Part shown: positions 1 through 7,351 of the stretch, in pieces
How the letters are laid out: each line of letters opens with the position of its first letter
Numbering within the stretch: the first letter of the stretch is position 1
Assembly: GCA_963789265.1 (NCBI GenBank)
Contig: CAWBKB010000007.1
Location: 448,001 to 512,000 of the forward strand
DNA length: 64,000 nt
Direction: 5' to 3'
From: an uncultured delta proteobacterium
GTDB lineage: Bacteria; Desulfobacterota; Desulfomonilia; Desulfomonilales; Desulfomonilaceae
Notes under the pieces: model-generated
What the model was told of the DNA's origin: nothing
The model's input: only the letters and a program-made list of their open reading frames with translations
The model's database searches: none
Position numbers and translations under genes: made by a program

Positions 1-362
1 TTGGGGATTTCCGCGGGGCAGTCGTCCACACACTTACTTGTAGCGGTGCGGTCCTCCACATACCTAGGTGAAACCCTGATGGTTGCGGTATAGTTGCCCG
101 GTTTTCCAGTAATATTTTCTACTTCCGACAAGGTATACACGGCAATATCGGGATTCCTTCTTATTCTTCTGAAATTGATTTCCAGGCCGCATGTGGGAGG
201 ACACAGCTTCGGAAAATACTTGTTCATCCGGGCTACCCGGCCTCCGAGATAGGGCAACTTTTCGACCAGGATCGCCTTGCAGCCGGCTTCCGCGGCTTCA
301 ACCGCGGCCGTAATACCGCTAATACCGCCCCCGACGACCAGTACGGTTTTGTTTCCAGCCAT
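1..362 (-). CDS. qmoA: QmoA (HdrA-like FAD subunit), 5' part; runs off the window edge
   Basis: Manual translation from ATG at 362: MAGNKTVLVVGGGISGITAAVEAAEAGCKAILVEKLPYLGGRVARMNKYFPKLCPPTCGLEINFRRI. Shows the GxGxxG FAD motif and the KYFPKLCPPxCG signature; lies directly downstream of aprA. Not in the ORF track. Confidence 0.92.
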   Translation of the reverse strand, partial: MAGNKTVLVVGGGISGITAAVEAAEAGCKAILVEKLPYLGGRVARMNKYFPKLCPPTCGLEINFRRIRRNPDIAVYTLSEVENITGKPGNYTATIRVSPRYVEDRTATSKCVDDCPAEIP

Positions 363-384
363 GCTTCCTCCCTGAAAAGGACTA

Positions 385-410
385 TGAGGGGGCAAAAAAA
401 TGCCCCCTCA
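385..410. terminator. GC-rich hairpin between aprA and qmoA
   Basis: tgagggggca-aaaaaa-tgccccctca, perfect 10-bp inverted repeat. Confidence 0.5.
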
Positions 411-429
411 TCAGCTTGTGTCGCAATCG

Positions 430-466
430 AACAAAACTCCGGGCACCTCAAGAAGCACCCGGAGTT
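430..466 (-). terminator. Probable intrinsic terminator/attenuator after aprA
   Basis: aactccggg...cccggagtt stem followed by a T-rich tail on the - strand. Confidence 0.6.
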
Positions 467-487
467 CTGAAGGTTAGTCGTTATTAG

Positions 488-2362
488 TTAAACTATGGTA
501 ATAACAGGAACTTTCTTCATTTCCCATTCGCCGTTCTTGTAAGTGGCGTTTGCGAACACCTTCCAGTTGGCCTCATCCATCGTCGGGAAATCGTTCCGGA
601 AGTAGTAGCCCGGCCAGCGGGTCTCTTCGCGGAAGAGAATCGTCCTGACGTGGACTTCCGCCTGCCACATTCTCTGGATGTTCTCATGGCAGCGCATCAG
701 CTCGTGCAGGCTCGAAGCAGCCAGCTTGTCGGAGTCTTCGTTGAGCCAGTTAAGGAGTTCAAGCGCCCTTTCCAGCTTCGGCTTGTTGGTCTTGAAGCCG
801 GCGGTGACCCCTGCCGCGTACTCGTCCATAATCTTCTGCAGACGGAACATGAACATCTTGGGTTTCATGAACTCCGGGTTGATGTCCGGATCGCTGGATT
901 TGGCTGCATGCTCGGTATATAGGTCCAGAGGCTTCAAGATCTGCTTCTTCAACGCCTCTACTTTAGCCGCGTCGACGTTCGGCAGGTTGTTATTGTCGAG
1001 CACGAAACGTACTATCGACTTACCGGCCGCACGACCTTCAGCATGAGATCCCGAAGAGAACTTATGGCTGGATGCGCCGGACGCGTCACCCGCGGAGAAG
1101 AGACCCTTCACTGTGGACATATATTCATAGCCCCAGAAGTACTCTTTTGGAGCCAGATCTTTGGGACCGCTCACCCACGCACCGGAGGCACCGGAGTGTG
1201 AACCGATGAAGTAAGGCTCAGAGGCTGCGATCTCGGAGGACTTCTCCTCGGGCTGGACGTTGGTGCCGGCCCAGAGAATGGCCTGGGCAATGGTCATGTC
1301 GAGGAAGTCTTCCCATGCCTCGGTTTCGAGTTCCTTCATCTTCTTCTTGTAAGCCTTCGGATCATCCTTGAGGGCCTCTGCGATCTTCTGAATGGCTTCT
1401 TCCGTTCTCATGTAGATCGGACCCTTGCCCTCGAACTCATCGAGCATGCCCAAGTAGTTACGCAAGTTGGCTGGGATCGGCTTCACTTTGCCGTAGGAGC
1501 CCCAGTTGTCCAACTCTGCCTTGCGCTCCACCATGTACTCGCCGCCGAACGCGTTGGTCGCACGGGACTTGAACAGGAGGAACCACGCGCCGACCGGGCC
1601 GTAACCGTCTTTGAAGCGGACGGGGATGAAACGCACTTCCTGGCAGGTCAGCTCCGCGCCGGCCATAAGGGTGAAGTACGTGCTGGAGCCCGAGTTCCAC
1701 GGCGGATACCACGCACGGCCAAGACCTTCACCTACGCTTCTCGGCTTGAATACGTGAACCGCGCCGCCCATGGCCGCGAGGACAGCTTTGGCCTTGAACA
1801 CGTAGAATTTTTCTTCACGAGTGCTGAAACCGACGGCGCCGGCAATGCGGTCCCCGTCCATGAGGGGAGTAGTGATGAAAACGCGCTCAAAGTACTCACC
1901 GCCGCGCTGGCTGAGAGCAGTCTTGGCCGCCTCGGCCACGATGACTTTGTAGGACTCGCCGTTGATCATGAGCTGCCAACGACCCTCATGAACAAAGTTG
2001 CCCTGCTCGTCCTTCCAGATGGGAAGACCCCATTTTTCAAAGAGATGAACAGAAGAGTCCACGTGACGGGCAATGTCATAGACCAGGTCTTCACGGGTGA
2101 TGCCCATGAGGTCGTTACGGACGTAGTTGACGTAGTCAACAACCGTGTTGTTGCCGCTGTTGATGTCCACGTACTCGTTGATGGCCGAAAGGCCCATGGC
2201 TACTGCGCCGGAACGGTCCATGGCAGCCTTATCCACCAAGGTGACCTTCAGACCGTTCTTGTTGGCCCAATAGGAGGCCTCGACTGCTGCGCCGCATGCC
2301 GCCATACCGCCGCCGCAGATCAGAATATCAGTGGTTACTTCGACGGTTTCAAAATTCGCCAT
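488..2362 (-). CDS. aprA: Adenylylsulfate reductase alpha subunit
   Basis: Motifs DRSGAVAMGLSAIN, WQLMINGESYK, GRAWYPPWNSGS, HKFSSGSHAEG, REETRWPGYY; 624 aa. Confidence 0.98.
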   Translation of the reverse strand: MANFETVEVTTDILICGGGMAACGAAVEASYWANKNGLKVTLVDKAAMDRSGAVAMGLSAINEYVDINSGNNTVVDYVNYVRNDLMGITREDLVYDIARHVDSSVHLFEKWGLPIWKDEQGNFVHEGRWQLMINGESYKVIVAEAAKTALSQRGGEYFERVFITTPLMDGDRIAGAVGFSTREEKFYVFKAKAVLAAMGGAVHVFKPRSVGEGLGRAWYPPWNSGSSTYFTLMAGAELTCQEVRFIPVRFKDGYGPVGAWFLLFKSRATNAFGGEYMVERKAELDNWGSYGKVKPIPANLRNYLGMLDEFEGKGPIYMRTEEAIQKIAEALKDDPKAYKKKMKELETEAWEDFLDMTIAQAILWAGTNVQPEEKSSEIAASEPYFIGSHSGASGAWVSGPKDLAPKEYFWGYEYMSTVKGLFSAGDASGASSHKFSSGSHAEGRAAGKSIVRFVLDNNNLPNVDAAKVEALKKQILKPLDLYTEHAAKSSDPDINPEFMKPKMFMFRLQKIMDEYAAGVTAGFKTNKPKLERALELLNWLNEDSDKLAASSLHELMRCHENIQRMWQAEVHVRTILFREETRWPGYYFRNDFPTMDEANWKVFANATYKNGEWEMKKVPVITIV

Positions 2363-2382
2363 ATCTTGGTACCTCCTAATGA

Positions 2383-2826
2383 TTACTTCTTAATTGTAGG
2401 CAGCTCTTTGAGCCGCAGAGCCTCAGGCTCATTGTACAGGCACTGGCTGGCCAGGTCTGTGGTGACTTCACCAAACCCGCCATCAGGCTTGACCTGACCT
2501 TCTGGAACCTTTCGGATGGGGAATTTGAACCGCTTCACCTGGCCGCTGCGGAACTTGACCGTCCACATGATGTCTTCGGAACCCCTCAGGGGCACCACCG
2601 ACGCTCCCATCGGAACGAAGTCGGCATAACCTCTGACGTCTATCGCCTGCTGCGGGCAAATTTTCACGCAGTTGTAGCACTCCCAGCACATTTCGGGTTC
2701 CATGTTCCAGGCTTTCATTTTTTCTTTGTCCAGAACCATCAAGTCATTAGGGCAGATGTACATGCAAGCGGTCTTGTCCTGGCCCTTGCATCCATCACAT
2801 TTTTCCATGATAACGAAACTTGGCAT
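2383..2826 (-). CDS. aprB: Adenylylsulfate reductase beta subunit (2x[4Fe-4S])
   Basis: MPSFV..KCDGCKGQDKTACMYICPNDLM and CWECYNCVKICPQQAI; SD aggagg upstream. Confidence 0.98.
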   Translation of the reverse strand: MPSFVIMEKCDGCKGQDKTACMYICPNDLMVLDKEKMKAWNMEPEMCWECYNCVKICPQQAIDVRGYADFVPMGASVVPLRGSEDIMWTVKFRSGQVKRFKFPIRKVPEGQVKPDGGFGEVTTDLASQCLYNEPEALRLKELPTIKK

Positions 2827-3197
2827 GAACCAACCTCCTAGTTAGTTTGAGCTTTTTTAGAGTCGTGTAACTCCTGTTGTTACGCGGCGCGTACGGCCGC
2901 CGAGTCTGTGAAGGCTCCTCCTTTCTATACGTGGTCGCTGCAGCCCCACAGGTAATGTTCATGGCGTGGGAGACGTTCACCAGCCAGCCCGGTATTTGCG
3001 TTCCTGTCGCGTTCCTCCCCCACCATCGGAACGATTTTCGCGCAGTGTCGGGTACGAAAAAGGGGCCGCAATCGCATAGACCTTCCAACAAAACTCTCAG
3101 AATTCCAACCTATCACGGAGATTTACAATATTCTGCAGTATTAAACCGGAGGTCCGGCGCAACCCCCAGCACCGCCGAAGCAGCTAAGGAATAAGGG

Positions 3198-3226
3198 ATT
3201 CAATCAAATCTTGGTCTGGTTGTCAA
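3198..3226 (-). promoter_or_regulatory. Candidate sigma-70 promoter for aprBA
   Basis: - strand TTGACA-17 nt-TTGAAT (weak -10), about 370 nt upstream of aprB. Confidence 0.4.
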
Positions 3227-3345
3227 GATTTTTTTCAGTGGAGAAGCCGTGAACTTGTTACTCCCTCCGCAGGGAACGCTCTTGCCACGAAAAGCGCCGT
3301 ATGCTAGTTTAATAAGTTCAGATTCGGGCGGCAAAAGGAACTCAA

Positions 3346-4314
3346 ATGACCCATCCGGGAAGAAACGATCCATGCCCATGCGGGAGTGGACTAAAATACA
3401 AGAAATGCTGCCTCGCCGGAGAAGCCACTAAACACGATCCGGACGGAGTTCAGGGCCTGCGGGCAAAGGCCTTCAAGAATATGTCCGAGCAAAAATGGAT
3501 GGAAGCCATAGAGGGATTCAAATCTATCCTGGACCGAGTCTCGGACCCGCATGCCGCGCTCGATGCGATCGCCGCCTGTTATGACGGTCTCGAGAATTAT
3601 CTCATGGCTGCGGAATTCTACGAGAAGGCTCTCGCTGTGTGTCCGGAATCACGAAGCTTCGACCTGCATTACCGGCTCGGCGTCTCCAGAGCCTGCGCGG
3701 AACGTATTGAAAAAGCTATCGATGCCTTTCAGCACTGCCTGGCGCTTCAAAGCGACACGGCATACGAACAGCGGTTGCTCGGTATACTTGAAGATCTGAA
3801 CGCGATTCTCCGGGATGAGAAGCCTCGTAGCCTTTTCCGTGTGCAAGTCCAGCTTCAGCGCGCATTTTCGGACATGGACGACAAAAATTATGAGTCCGCG
3901 GCTGCCCGACTCGAACGTATTGCCACGGATGACCCTCAAAATCCGGCGATCTTTTACAATCTCGGAGTTGCCAACTTTTTCCTAAAGAGAGAGGAAGAAG
4001 CAATTACTGAATTTGAAAGATGTGTCGCACTGAATTCCGGTTATGTTGAAGCTTGGTACAATATGGGACAAATTTATATGCTGAAACAGAAGGACTTTTC
4101 TCGAGCCCTCCACTGCTTTGACCGGGCTGCAGCAATCCGCCCGGATTACATAGGCGCACACCACCAGCGTGGGGTCGCGTACGAGCTACTTGGCAACCCT
4201 GTGAGAGCGCTGAAATGCTGGGAAAGAACGTTGGAATTGGACCCTGAGAACAAGCAGGCCAGAGAGAATATCAAGAGATTGGGCGACTCCATTGCAAACC
4301 AGCCTTGCCGGTGA
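3346..4314 (+). CDS. SEC-C motif + TPR repeat protein
   Basis: N-terminal GRNDPCPCGSGLKYKKCC followed by several TPRs (FYNLGVA, WYNMGQIY, HHQRGVAY). Confidence 0.9.
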   Translation: MTHPGRNDPCPCGSGLKYKKCCLAGEATKHDPDGVQGLRAKAFKNMSEQKWMEAIEGFKSILDRVSDPHAALDAIAACYDGLENYLMAAEFYEKALAVCPESRSFDLHYRLGVSRACAERIEKAIDAFQHCLALQSDTAYEQRLLGILEDLNAILRDEKPRSLFRVQVQLQRAFSDMDDKNYESAAARLERIATDDPQNPAIFYNLGVANFFLKREEEAITEFERCVALNSGYVEAWYNMGQIYMLKQKDFSRALHCFDRAAAIRPDYIGAHHQRGVAYELLGNPVRALKCWERTLELDPENKQARENIKRLGDSIANQPCR

Positions 4315-4333: not shown

Positions 4334-5119
4334 TTGATGAAACTAAAAACCTCCCCATGTGAGCTCGAGCGCTTAATGACCTGGGATGACTCCTTCTCTT
4401 TTCGGTGTCATCCGGCTATTGACTGCTTCAACTCATGTTGCAAAGACGTGACTATATTTCTTACCTCCCTAGATGTCATCAGGCTTAGAAAAGCGCTGGA
4501 GATATCTTCCACCAATTTTCTCGAGACACATACCCATCGGCTGATCTCTCAGACCACGGGTCTGCCCGCTGTAGCCCTCAAAATGAGTCAGGATGAGGCG
4601 AAAACCTGTCCGTTTGTGAGCGCGACAGGTTGCTCCGTTTACAACGATCGGCCTTATTCCTGCCGACTCTACCCCCTGGACACCGAGCAAGGAGTGGAAT
4701 ATAAATTCGTTGTGGACGAAGGCGTGTGCCACGGGCTAAGAGAATCCCGAGAATGGACGGTCGAGACGTGGAGAAAGGATCAGGGCCTTTATGCGTACGA
4801 CGATCTCGATCACCAGCTCAAGGATGTAATGGCCGCAGATCAGGTTTTGGAAAGCAAGATTCAGGATCCGAGAATGCAGGACATGTGTCTCATGACTTTG
4901 TACGATCCTGACCGGTTTCGAGAGTTCATATTTAAGAGCAGCTTTCTTCAGAAGTTCCACGTGGATGATGACATAATGGAGAAGATAAGGGACGACGACG
5001 TCGCTCTTCTGTATTTTGCAAGCCAGTGGCTCCGTTTTGCTCTATTTGGCCAAAAAGGATTCCTGAAAATCGATCGCGATTACCTTGAACTTAAGAAACG
5101 AGAAGTTCTGGGCGGATGA
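4334..5119 (+). CDS. YkgJ-family cysteine-cluster protein
   Basis: FRCHPAIDCFNSCC ... CPFV..GCSVYNDRPYSCRLYPL ... CHG. Confidence 0.88.
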   Translation: MMKLKTSPCELERLMTWDDSFSFRCHPAIDCFNSCCKDVTIFLTSLDVIRLRKALEISSTNFLETHTHRLISQTTGLPAVALKMSQDEAKTCPFVSATGCSVYNDRPYSCRLYPLDTEQGVEYKFVVDEGVCHGLRESREWTVETWRKDQGLYAYDDLDHQLKDVMAADQVLESKIQDPRMQDMCLMTLYDPDRFREFIFKSSFLQKFHVDDDIMEKIRDDDVALLYFASQWLRFALFGQKGFLKIDRDYLELKKREVLGG

Positions 5120-6558
5120 AGGCAGGAAAGATGAAACGATTTGCATGGTTCGTAGTGGCGCTCCTACTAAGCGTGATGGTTGGAAGCGCACTGGCCGCGG
5201 AATCGGCCATCGACAGACACATTAAAGATCTTAAAAGTGATAAGCCCGAAGTTCGAGCCAAGGCGGCTTTCGACCTGGGATGCGGCTGACACAAGTCGCC
5301 GAGGGCGGTTCCGCCTCTCATTGAAGCTCTGAAAGACCCGGACGCCAAAGTGCGCAGCGCCGCTACCGAATCACTCGGCTTTTTCTCGAGTCAGGCTTCA
5401 CAGATAATCCCCAAGGTGCTGGAACGCTTATCCGATGATAAAGTAGAAGTTCGACGAGCGGCAATTCAGTCGCTAGGACGACTCGGCAAGGGGAACCACA
5501 ACGTGGAGCAGGCCCTCCGCAAGTTCCTTGACGATCCGGACACGCTTACCAAGCTCAACACTATAATCGCACTCGCATCAGTGGGTAAAGTGGATGATTC
5601 GGTTATTCCCACGTTGCTCACGGCCATTAGCAATAAAGATCGGACAACTGCCAAAGCCGCCGGGCGTGTGCTGAGTCAGCTAGCTCCCGCCAAGCCGGAC
5701 AAGGTTCTACCCGGACTTACCGAGTTGCTGGACAAGAACCAGGAGCCTGGGGTCTCTAACGCATTGAAAGTATTGCGGTTTATGAAGGCGGCGGGATCAC
5801 CGGCTTTGCCCAAGATATCCACCTTGTATGATAAGGCGGACGCTCATGTTCGTTTGGAAATTTTGGGAGCTCTTTCCTCCATTGACAGTAAAGGGGATCA
5901 GGCCCTCCCTGTGCTCATTAAGGCGCTCAAGGCCCACGATATCATGGTTAAGAAAGAAGCGCTCCTCGGGGTTATACGATATAGATCCAAAGCGGATCTG
6001 TTTCTGGAACCTCTGGCCGAATCCATGAAGACAGGAGAATTGGAGAATCGCCTGTTGGCCATCGGTATCGTCCGGGGGCTGGGGCAACAAGGCTTAAAGG
6101 CGGTGCCGACGTTGATAGCCCTGACAGACGACCCGAATGTGCGTGTTCGCTCGGCCGCGATTGGCGCTCTTGCCGGTTTCAGGCCTGCACCGCCGGAAGT
6201 CCTCGAAACACTCGGCCGCAAGCTTAAAGACTTTCAGCCCGCTGTGAGGCTGGCTGCCGTGGGCGCGCTACGACAAAACGGCTACAAATATCCTGAAAAG
6301 GTGGCTGGACTATTGGAATCAGCACTGAAAGACGAAAAGAATGAGTTCACTCGACGTGCAATGGCGGCAACACTAGCCGGCATCAGGAAGGTGAAGCCGA
6401 GTACCGCTGCTGCACAATCGACGACGTCGGAAAACGTGAAGCCGAGTACCAACACCGACAAGGCGAAATCGGCCAAGTCGGAAAACTTGAAGCCGGGCAC
6501 CGCTACGGCAGAATCATCGAAATCGGACAAGGATAATCCCAAACAGGTGACCAAATAG
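5116..6558 (+). CDS. Exported HEAT-repeat protein with in-frame UGA at 5287-5289 (candidate selenoprotein)
   Basis: ATG 5116 overlaps the upstream stop (ATGA); alternative ATG 5131. Signal peptide MKRFAWFVVALLLSVMVGSALA. First HEAT repeat continues across the TGA (PEVRAKAAFDLGCG*HKSPRAVPPLIEALKDPDAKVRSAA), in frame with ORF 5350..6558. Confidence 0.8.
5290..5319 (+). promoter_or_regulatory. Bacterial SECIS-like hairpin
   Basis: UGA, 11-nt spacer, then GAG-GGCG-[GUUC]-CGCC-U-CUC: bulged U and an apical loop starting GU. Confidence 0.65.
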
Positions 6559-6656: not shown

Positions 6657-7061
6657 TCATAGCCAAAACATTCTTGGCACTTGAAAATCTACGTTGTAGA
6701 ATCTAATCACTTCATCCAGACTGATGCGAAAAACGTGACCCGCGCGCTGTGCTTTGGTCCGAAAGTTACTATTGCGGAACAGAAGTCGCAGGAGTGGAGG
6801 GATTCGAGGTACATCTTTATCGAGAACATTAAAGCAAACGATACAGAAGCGCCGATCAGCTCGTATCTTGTTCCAAAAATGATTGACATTGATGGTTATA
6901 AAGGCTGGATGTCGCTGTCGACAAAGGAGCGACGGAATAGCGTCATCTTTTATTATTGTCGCCGGTCGCAAGTCGTTCACTAGGCGGACTGCACCGTGAT
7001 ACCATTGAGCGATAGTCTGTTCTAGTTGCCGACCTCCTAGTTGCTCGTCGAGTACAATCAC
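6657..7061 (-). CDS. PIN-like (DUF5615/VapC45-type) toxin candidate
   Basis: MIVLDEQL start, I..DD..I and FITIN motifs; translationally coupled to the upstream DUF433 gene. Confidence 0.65.
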   Translation of the reverse strand: MIVLDEQLGGRQLEQTIAQWYHGAVRLVNDLRPATIIKDDAIPSLLCRQRHPAFITINVNHFWNKIRADRRFCIVCFNVLDKDVPRIPPLLRLLFRNSNFRTKAQRAGHVFRISLDEVIRFYNVDFQVPRMFWL

Positions 7062-7351
7062 TAGGCCGCAGCACGCTTGGACAGTTTCTTATTAAGTTTT
7101 TTGCCAAGCTTGCTCGCGATCTGCATTGCTTCAGAGATGGCCTCCCTTGGCACTCGACCGCCATAACCTTCCACAATGTAGTCGACACTCTCTCCGGCAT
7201 CGATCCGTGACAAGGTCCCCGCAACCTCAATCCGTGTATATTTGAAGGTGGGCCGCCCCCCGCAAACGCCCTTGGCGCGCACAACATGCTCTCCTAGCGG
7301 GTAATACTCATAGGGTTCACCGCCCACGATTTCGGTGACCAGTTTTGGCAT
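7061..7351 (-). CDS. DUF433 antitoxin-like protein
   Basis: GVCGGRPTFKYTRIEV..AGESVDYIVEGY signature. Confidence 0.85.
   Translation of the reverse strand: MPKLVTEIVGGEPYEYYPLGEHVVRAKGVCGGRPTFKYTRIEVAGTLSRIDAGESVDYIVEGYGGRVPREAISEAMQIASKLGKKLNKKLSKRAAA

Follow-up and report, generated by a model that had tools for sequence, protein, structure and literature searches.

A gene on the plus strand of the window, by which we mean the whole 64,000-nt stretch of Desulfomonilaceae DNA analysed here (contig CAWBKB010000007.1, positions 448,001 to 512,000), very probably encodes a selenoprotein. Positions 5131-6558 would then form a single gene for an exported HEAT-repeat protein, in which the UGA at 5287-5289 is read as selenocysteine (Sec). 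In the list of open reading frames (ORFs), this TGA terminates a 57-residue ORF with a hydrophobic N-terminus (5116..5289, plus strand), and a 402-residue HEAT ORF with a GTG start (5350..6558) continues in the same frame. Translation of 5116-6558 through the TGA yields 480 residues with a single TGA inside. This arrangement, a signal-peptide ORF from 5116 or 5131 that reaches the TGA and runs on into the HEAT ORF, had been pointed out in the initial annotation and proved exact to the base. Counted from the likely start at 5131, the coding sequence (5131..6558, plus strand) comprises 475 codons including that for Sec, plus a TAG stop. The putative Sec (5287..5289) is residue 53, and the Cys codon two residues before it (5281..5283) is residue 51, the codons at 5281-5289 being TGC-GGC-TGA (C-G-U). 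A TGA at the same alignment column in orthologues and paralogues, Cys at that column in further homologues, conservation of a downstream hairpin at the RNA level and a full set of Sec genes all favour the original proposal of an unrecognised selenoprotein. Neither Trp, Arg or Gly at the Sec column, nor loss of the hairpin, nor a lack of Sec machinery was seen.

The reading frame across the UGA and its conservation

The start codon is likely ATG 5131, because an AGGA lies a few nucleotides upstream and because this start is common to orthologues outside the genus, most of which begin at this second Met. ATG 5116, five codons upstream of 5131, is an alternative. The GTG at 5350..5352 is taken as the start by ORF finders; we judge that it is no real start, because it is not conserved as GTG and because the protein upstream of it is conserved. 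Among 20 orthologues the codon at this place (reference position 79) is GTG in only 4 and GTA, GTT or GTC in the other 16, which bears out the earlier remark that the 402-residue ORF has no good start of its own. Upstream of this GTG, at reference positions 71-74, the same 20 orthologues keep their amino acids and vary at synonymous sites; the four conserved codons just 3' of the hairpin described below (Ala, Leu, Lys, Asp) show this free synonymous variation. In an alignment of 18 orthologues (A1), invariant residues precede and follow the TGA in one and the same frame: Asp-28, Ile-31, Leu-34, Lys-35, Arg-42, Ala-43 and Cys-51 before it, and Ala-59, Val-60, Leu-63, Leu-67, Asp-69, Val-74 and Arg-75 after it.

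We searched 40 related genomes in six frames with the read-through protein, 24 of them from the same family and representing 19 genera. The protein was matched in 23 of the 24 family genomes and in 18 of the 19 genera, the 24th genome being 73% complete; the full-length matches show 39-88% identity and each carries one in-frame TGA. All 20 orthologous loci cut from these relatives have the TGA at one alignment column, within the motif E/D-L-G-C-[GST]-U-x-[KR]-x-x-R-A-V-P-P-L. A second scan, over one genome per prokaryotic species, returned 80 loci, of which 61 were inspected and the 19 weakest, from other phyla (L106, L108-L110, L112-L114, L117-L122, L124-L129), were not. Among the inspected loci, the TGA stands at the column in 49 of 49 orthologues (37-86% identity, motif LGC[GSTA]U). 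These 49 loci come from metagenome-assembled genomes (MAGs) labelled Desulfomonilaceae, Desulfomonile, Desulfomonilales or, in older taxonomy, Syntrophaceae or delta proteobacterium. The counts of 20 and 49 are not independent, since they come from the same species collection and the sets overlap. In 11 generic HEAT proteins that the same scan found in other phyla, the column falls in the ordinary L-G-x-I-G-D turn and holds no stop. The distribution of the family is narrow. Its profile (E <= 1e-25) found 8 of 401 genomes sampled evenly across the phylum, and all 8 belong to one family, namely the window's genome and 7 of 7 relatives; none of the 393 genomes in 110 other families gave a match. 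Two orthologues show lesions that may be either MAG assembly indels or real decay: L008 (genome G003) has a garbled out-of-frame segment of about 40 residues, and L098 has many stops after residue ~100.

The earlier suggestion that homologues be searched for TGA or Cys at this column thus returned both. Three homologues with uninterrupted ORFs (L036/L138, L040/L134 and P0120) have Cys at the Sec column, and neither Trp nor Gly occurs there among the family members examined. The Cys forms read GTCC in L036/L138 and GACC in P0120, both with vicinal Cys-Cys, and QTC in L040/L134. In a quick tree, in which long-branch paralogues are unreliably placed, L138 and P0120 are sister to a Sec-type paralogue with a support of 90 in the Shimodaira-Hasegawa-like approximate likelihood ratio test (SH-aLRT). 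Several genomes also hold second or third copies with 29-42% identity and the TGA at the same column; ten such paralogues carry it. The C-x-U pair itself, proposed in the initial annotation as a redox or metal-binding motif, holds for part of the family. Cys-51 is invariant in the main orthologue group (49/49 loci), whereas most paralogues have GGU, SQU, KGU or SGU, and one motif is C-G-G-U, without Cys two residues upstream of Sec, so the pair is not family-wide.

The genome possesses the machinery that a selenoprotein needs, as the initial annotation had asked to be confirmed. SelA (507 bits), SelB (386 bits against a cut-off of 242) and SelD (360 bits) all score above the curated cut-offs, and ARAGORN finds a tRNA-Sec gene. 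The selD gene lies on the same contig outside the window (G000:C7:193442-194362, L030) and has one in-frame TGA of its own; read through, it would be a Sec-type selenophosphate synthetase and the second selenoprotein gene on the contig. TGA terminates 1282 of the 2368 ORFs of at least 300 residues in the genome and is the commonest stop codon; it is therefore not reassigned there.

Public predictions of the gene found here are all cut at the UGA. In a collection of 5.8 billion proteins, the 43 family-level matches measure 290-392 residues and account for 60-78% of the read-through sequence; 'HEAT repeat protein' and 'HEAT repeat domain-containing protein' are the only names they bear. A hidden Markov model search of 1.84 billion representatives was dominated by giant multi-repeat HEAT proteins and is informative only for shortened members and one Cys form; 28 of its 29 single-stretch family matches start after the Sec column. 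Predictions of this kind drop both the signal peptide and the probable active residue, so that annotation of Desulfobacterota and surveys of their selenoproteomes would miss the HEAT selenoprotein.

The downstream hairpin and the decoding of the UGA

The UGA is followed by an 11-nt spacer (5290-5300) and a hairpin at 5301..5319 (plus strand). The 5' arm GAGGGCG (5301-5307) leads into the loop GTTC (5308-5311), and the 3' arm consists of CGCC (5312-5315), an unpaired T (5316) and CTC (5317-5319). This gives 7 bp with an unpaired U at 5316, an apical GUUC loop and 18 nt between UGA and loop. The sequence of this element, TGC-GGC-TGA, spacer and hairpin, is as first described, and a minimum free energy (MFE) fold reproduces the hairpin. 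The selenocysteine insertion sequence (SECIS) of E. coli fdhF has an 11-nt spacer, a bulged U on the 5' strand of the upper stem and GU in the apical loop. The likeness drawn to it in the initial annotation extends to the spacer and the loop GU and breaks down at the unpaired U, which lies on the 3' side of the stem in the HEAT gene.

According to PMC13188914, bacterial SECIS elements (bSECIS) have an upper stem of 4 bp or more capped by an apical loop of 3-9 nt, a G in the first two loop positions, a UGA-to-loop distance of 16-37 nt and an MFE of -7.5 kcal/mol or lower. The bacterial SECIS search that had been suggested places the window element within all four limits, with a 4-nt loop starting with GU, 4 + 3 bp, 18 nt and -10.5 kcal/mol. 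We extended the comparison to 56 distinct family sequences, obtained from 50 orthologues and 10 paralogues after merging duplicates. In all 56, a G stands first or second in the loop at a distance of 17-18 nt from the UGA; 45 satisfy the four criteria strictly, and 54 do so if pairs beyond the bulge are counted. In a same-gene energy control, the 26-nt segment that begins 9 nt beyond the UGA was ranked against segments of equal length from the gene to which it belongs. It folds more stably than 95% of these in 53 of 59 genes and than 99% in 30 of 59; three orthologues rank at 5-7%. In place of the unpaired U at 5316, 4 of 50 sequences have A or C, and the Lys subclade described below lacks the unpaired base. 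Paralogues that encode other peptides over the hairpin codons (RSGRSL, RSVRP) still form a hairpin at the same distance.

The strongest evidence for the hairpin at the RNA level is a freeze of synonymous codons. We compared 110 columns with an amino acid common to 17 or more of 20 orthologues. A single codon is used in just three of them, all within the hairpin, namely Arg AGG (19/19), Pro CCG (19/19) and Leu CTC (20/20), and two other hairpin codons are nearly frozen (Pro CCT, 18/19; Ala GCG, 17/20). Columns for Arg, Leu and Pro elsewhere have a codon entropy of 1.1-2.45 bits. The locus is thus a clean example of frozen synonymous codons exposing an RNA signal within a coding region. In a clade of 8 sequences, Arg AGG is changed to Lys AAG together with a change of Leu CTC to TTG, which produces a 7-bp stem free of the bulge. 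This compensation is probably one event, since its four members placed in the quick tree (L076, L085, L089, L092) form one clade. When the seven-pair structure is held fixed, 88.3% of cells pair, a value reached by none of 500 shuffles and compared with 45-69% in slid controls.

Several results weigh against the selenoprotein interpretation or limit what the hairpin can contribute to it. A 66-nt stretch around the hairpin is not unusual compared with shuffles (z -1.0; 30 of 200 fold as well), and therefore the window's sequence on its own cannot show the hairpin to be beyond chance, as the comparative data do. Two paralogues in the 56-sequence set fail the -7.5 kcal/mol criterion, and paralogues L034, L038 and L044 rank only at 24-27% in the same-gene energy control. 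The hairpin also encodes a conserved peptide, RAVPPL, so that its conservation is partly at the protein level; the synonymous freeze is the part that is not. Formal covariation in the stem is weak, with only 1 of the 7 pairs changed on both sides (8 cells, probably one event). The number of pairs with a change on both sides is reached by 444 of 500 shuffles, and that of further pair types by 499 of 500. A slide of the 3' partners by -2 out-scores the unshifted register for covariation (0.264 versus 0.100), probably because paralogues pair in a shifted register, and RNAalifold gives no consensus structure for the 60-sequence alignment. The hairpin is therefore supported by conservation, frozen synonymous sites and one compensatory event; broad covariation is not part of its support.

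The gene otherwise resembles the E. coli formate dehydrogenase genes and the consensus bSECIS. It has an in-frame UGA followed directly by a stem-loop with a small G(U) apical loop, the 18-nt spacing, an MFE below -7.5 kcal/mol, Sec machinery in the genome and Cys homologues. It differs from known bSECIS genes in the shortness of the hairpin (7 bp) and in a protein family that is absent from the published lists examined. As follows from the established bacterial mechanism, SelB with Sec-tRNA(Sec) would bind the hairpin beyond the 11-nt spacer with the ribosome positioned at the UGA; selenocysteine would be inserted there, and translation would run on into the HEAT repeats. The mechanism of synthesis is that of an ordinary bacterial selenoprotein gene, and it is the protein family that is not ordinary.

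Three other accounts of the UGA were weighed against decoding as Sec. If the TGA were a true stop, the locus would make an exported peptide of 52-57 residues and a separate, leaderless cytoplasmic HEAT protein from an internal start such as GTG 5350. Public gene predictions read the locus in this way, as the 43 shortened matches and the 28 of 29 starts beyond the column illustrate, and TGA is the commonest stop codon of the genome. However, no downstream start is conserved (GTG in 4/20) and gene callers choose differing ones, protein-level conservation in this frame extends over the 20 codons from the TGA to 5350, and the TGA splits the first HEAT repeat. The three Cys homologues are uninterrupted, a true stop would leave a positioned hairpin with frozen synonymous sites unexplained, and we give it a very slim chance. 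A pseudogene, a nonsense mutation or an assembly error in the window's genome might be suspected, because the sole DNA run with this stretch has contigs at 4900-5168 and 5427-5786, with none across 5172-5426, and TGA 5287 falls between them, while no RNA run with the stretch was listed; orthologues L008 and L098, moreover, carry frameshifts. This explanation is effectively refuted by the comparative data and has negligible probability: each of 49 independent assemblies of other species has the TGA at this column, as do the paralogues, and the rest of the HEAT gene is under clear purifying selection.

It is also conceivable that the UGA is read through without Sec, by a near-cognate or suppressor tRNA inserting Trp, Cys or Gly, with the hairpin acting only as a stimulator. 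In other systems, a stem-loop that follows a stop codon can promote read-through. What speaks against such read-through is the alternation of Sec and Cys at the column, which is the usual signature of selenoproteins (PMC13188914), and a hairpin that fits a SelB-type SECIS in its spacing and its loop G. The genome furthermore has the full Sec machinery, selD here and MccSep (see below) in relatives use TGA likewise, and no family member examined has Trp or Gly at the column. Read-through of this kind is accordingly left with a slim chance, and decoding of the UGA as Sec is taken as the basis for what follows.

Predicted export and fold of the product

A Sec-type (secretory) signal peptide is predicted at 5131..5196 (plus strand). 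Read from the translation, residues 1-22 contain Lys-Arg in a basic n-region, a hydrophobic core and Ala-Leu-Ala, after which cleavage probably occurs. The N-termini of all full-length orthologues have the same layout with small residues at -3 and -1, and no conserved twin-arginine motif is present in them. Behind the signal peptide, Pfam HEAT_2 (PF13646) matches over 7 stretches with an E-value of 1e-51 and 173.6 bits against a cut-off of 27.7.

We modelled the structure with AlphaFold (AF2) from an 18-sequence alignment in which Cys replaced Sec. The model has a mean predicted local distance difference test score (pLDDT) of 85.9 and consists of a continuous stack of helical pairs up to residue ~420. 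The C-terminal tail beyond is disordered and rich in Lys, Ser, Thr and Pro, and it is missing from other genera. Cys-51, Gly-52 and Sec-53 lie in the loop 51-56 between helices 39-50 and 57-66; this loop is the least confident folded part beyond the signal-peptide region (block mean 81 versus 94-97). The product thus appears to be an exported alpha-solenoid of ~475 residues with Sec in the first inter-repeat loop. The signal peptide would direct the unfolded chain through the Sec translocon, leaving in the periplasm a mature alpha-solenoid of ~450 residues whose single selenol would sit next to Cys-51 on the exposed loop between repeats 1 and 2.

Comparison with known structures and families places the protein among generic repeat proteins. 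Foldseek against the PDB returned the designed-repeat entry alphaRep 6fsq as best match and otherwise PP2A-A, importins and catenins, all generic solenoids that give no functional lead, and no thioredoxin fold was among the matches. A phycobilin lyase (CpcE/CpcF/CpeY) or NblB was considered and rejected, with scores of 51.2, 37.3, 29.9 and 36.9 bits against NCBIfam cut-offs of 300, 330, 220 and 600. The NCBIfam models for fumarate-reductase C-terminal repeats, 'putative lyase', NblB and the DVU0298 family were likewise rejected, all scoring far below their cut-offs, and NCBIfam has no specific model for the HEAT selenoprotein. With the HEAT_2 and PBS-lyase HEAT-like proteins (CpcE/CpcF, NblB and the alphaRep scaffolds, which were designed from this repeat) it shares repeat sequence and fold. 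Ordinary HEAT_2 members (L100-L116) have the turn 'LG-x-IG-D', at one position of which the HEAT selenoprotein has its Sec; it further differs from these proteins by its signal peptide and by the lack of any bilin-related context.

Bacterial selenoproteins are almost all redox enzymes with well-known folds. Against this background, the unusual features of the predicted protein are a non-enzyme scaffold fold, export by the Sec pathway and restriction to one family. No HEAT-repeat selenoprotein is mentioned in the main texts of PMC13188914, PMC9312934, PMC12013277, PMC13326102 or bioRxiv 10.1101/2022.07.06.499078, which comprise two reviews, the deep-Sep and BSepDB papers and a preprint on 'eight unexpected families', nor was one found in the full-text literature searched, a scope that leaves supplementary family tables and subscription papers outside. 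That a secreted repeat scaffold should retain one selenocysteine throughout a family whose members reduce sulfate and sulfur would point to a so far undescribed use of selenium.

Gene neighbourhoods and possible roles

The HEAT gene is the third of three closely spaced genes on the same strand. The first (3346..4314, plus strand) encodes a protein with an N-terminal SEC-C zinc motif and TPR repeats (Pfam SEC-C, TPR). The second (4334..5119, plus strand) encodes a CxxCxxCC protein of the YkgJ type (PF03692, E 8.8e-9) and ends 11 nt before Met 5131. In all 49 orthologous loci the CxxCxxCC gene is the next gene upstream in the same orientation, with 64-90% identity, and the TPR/SEC-C gene occupies the same position in 45 of 49, the remaining four having short upstream flanks. 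Divergent from the operon are aprB (2383..2826, minus strand; TIGR02060, 213 bits against 135.65) and aprA (488..2362, minus strand; TIGR02061, 868.5 bits against 641.75), which encode the beta and alpha subunits of adenosine 5'-phosphosulfate (APS) reductase. In 41 of the 49 loci the gene for the beta subunit keeps this relative place. Its absence from the other 8 coincides exactly with a truncated upstream flank, so that it is present in 41 of the 41 loci able to show it. The N-terminus of AprA appears at the locus edge in 38 of 49 loci. Together with an HdrA/QmoA-like gene at the window edge, aprB and aprA occupy window positions 1-2826 on the minus strand, and the ~520 nt at 2827-3345 separate them from the HEAT operon. 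A convergent gyrB-like gene lies downstream in 33 of 49 loci.

The paralogues have other neighbours. In 8 of 10 paralogue loci, a rhodanese-like gene whose product has an N-terminal hydrophobic segment lies just upstream, and in 5 of these 8 the gene for a MauE/DoxX membrane protein with a C-G-C motif lies either between it and the HEAT gene or beside it. Thioredoxin_3 occurs in 3 of 10 loci and NrfD-type membrane subunits in 2 of 10, and some neighbourhoods include an ArsR-family regulator or a DGC-domain protein. A literature search on the combination of MauE, rhodanese and HEAT repeat returned nothing relevant. The rhodanese-like neighbours (L131:7703-8347, minus strand; L134:3969-4463, plus strand; and six more) share the loop L-Y-C-Y-G-P-E-C-D-M-A-E, with two Cys in the active-site loop. 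Upstream genes of the baeRF family occur in 4 of 10 paralogue loci (L133, L135, L136, L140), with DUF72 beside them in L135 and L136; it is curious that a release-factor-like gene stands upstream of a rhodanese/MauE/HEAT-Sec cluster recoded at UGA.

In 3 of 10 paralogue loci, the gene immediately downstream on the same strand encodes a five-haem cytochrome (L131:3336-4547, minus strand; L132 from 6353, plus strand; L139 up to 4592, minus strand). Read through its own TGA, this cytochrome gains about 100 residues (404 residues in L131) and contains A-G-H-R-I-P-D-G-U-P. The peptide matches the Sec peptide of MccSep, described in PMC13510729 as the periplasmic polysulfide reductase of Geobacter sulfurreducens, and these MccSep homologues share the pattern AGH-x-IPDG-U-P. 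Like the predicted HEAT protein, MccSep as reported there is a selenoprotein of Desulfobacterota that is exported and that appears in databases split at its UGA. It differs in being a haem enzyme, and the HEAT protein, which has no cofactor motif, is unrelated to it in sequence or fold. MccSep homologues with one TGA occur in 15 of the 24 same-family relatives, 13 of which have them away from the HEAT paralogues; with adjacency in the other 2 only, a strict link between HEAT paralogue and MccSep was rejected.

From this gene context we tentatively propose that the selenol may be the reactive group of a periplasmic carrier that handles sulfur or thiols. The proposal follows from aprBA facing the operon and from the rhodanese, MauE/DoxX, thioredoxin-like and, in some cases, MccSep genes beside the paralogues. 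Either the selenol would bind sulfane sulfur or polysulfide in a Se-S adduct, or it would cycle through a Cys51-Sec53 selenenylsulfide, and the solenoid surface would serve as a docking site for partners from dissimilatory sulfur metabolism. Periplasmic sulfur carriers include the Sud polysulfide-sulfur transferase of Wolinella and persulfide carriers of the rhodanese type. What the HEAT protein would share with them is the proposed principle only, in which one reactive chalcogen residue of a soluble periplasmic protein passes sulfane sulfur to a respiratory reductase; the fold is unrelated, and selenium replaces sulfur at the proposed reactive residue. The HEAT selenoprotein is in this sense a testable candidate for an as yet unrecognised component of periplasmic sulfur handling. 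In a more specific and rather doubtful version, the protein would be a non-enzymatic periplasmic docking scaffold whose selenol, borne by a flexible loop, shuttles sulfane sulfur, polysulfide or selenium between the rhodanese and MauE/DoxX thiol machinery of the membrane and respiratory sulfur reductases of which MccSep is an example. If true, it would be the first alpha-solenoid selenoprotein and would put selenium to use in substrate trafficking, not catalysis, in dissimilatory sulfur metabolism. Several points tell against this functional assignment. The proteins encoded beside it in the window's operon appear cytoplasmic, and gene order shared within a single bacterial family may simply reflect inheritance. 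Only 2 of the 15 relatives bearing MccSep have it beside a HEAT paralogue, and the window's genome (95.6% complete) gave no MccSep match.

Two other functions were considered for the same protein, and both seem unlikely. As a periplasmic binder of soft metals or metalloids (Hg, Cu(I), As(III)) or of selenium, it would chelate through C-x-U or Cys-Cys and deliver the ligand by means of the solenoid. The vicinal Cys-Cys of the Cys-type homologues (GTCC, GACC) and the ArsR-family regulator, DGC-domain protein and Thioredoxin_3 near some paralogues would suit such a binder. So would the CU/CC selenoproteins, for which organometallic chemistry is proposed in bioRxiv 10.1101/2022.07.06.499078. Those proteins resemble the HEAT selenoprotein in being cut at the Sec codon in databases, in having Sec near Cys and in having Cys-Cys homologues; they belong to other families and folds, and HEAT is not mentioned in the main text of that preprint. 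The most recurrent neighbours, however, are rhodanese and MauE/DoxX for the paralogues and aprBA for the orthologues, and no metal transporter or resistance gene stands beside the window's HEAT gene. As a thiol:disulfide oxidoreductase, the protein would use a Cys51-Sec53 selenenylsulfide to reduce or isomerise disulfides of periplasmic clients bound on the HEAT surface. Bacterial selenoproteins are mostly redox proteins (PMC9312934 and PMC13188914), the C-x-U is invariant in the main orthologue group, and CGC-motif MauE/DoxX and thioredoxin-like proteins lie beside paralogues; against this, the fold is not that of a thioredoxin and the Foldseek matches are generic alpha-solenoids only. Both functions meet the same difficulty in the paralogues. 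Most of these lack a second thiol, which argues against family-wide two-point chelation and against a resolving Cys as the ancestral function and favours a lone nucleophilic selenol.

Two minor features of the gene surroundings were noted. Between the window's HEAT gene and the gyrB-like gene lie a 134-residue ORF without a family match (6657-7061, minus strand) and its partner, a DUF433 gene (7061-7351, minus strand), whose stop overlaps the start of the ORF. The pair has the look of a two-gene cassette that was inserted here; only 3 of 49 loci contain it. The only MauE/DoxX gene of the window's genome is on another contig (L141, G000:C1:2373649-2377041) with no HEAT gene nearby; its neighbours are an ankyrin-repeat ORF, an ArsR-like ORF and an NrfD-like membrane protein.

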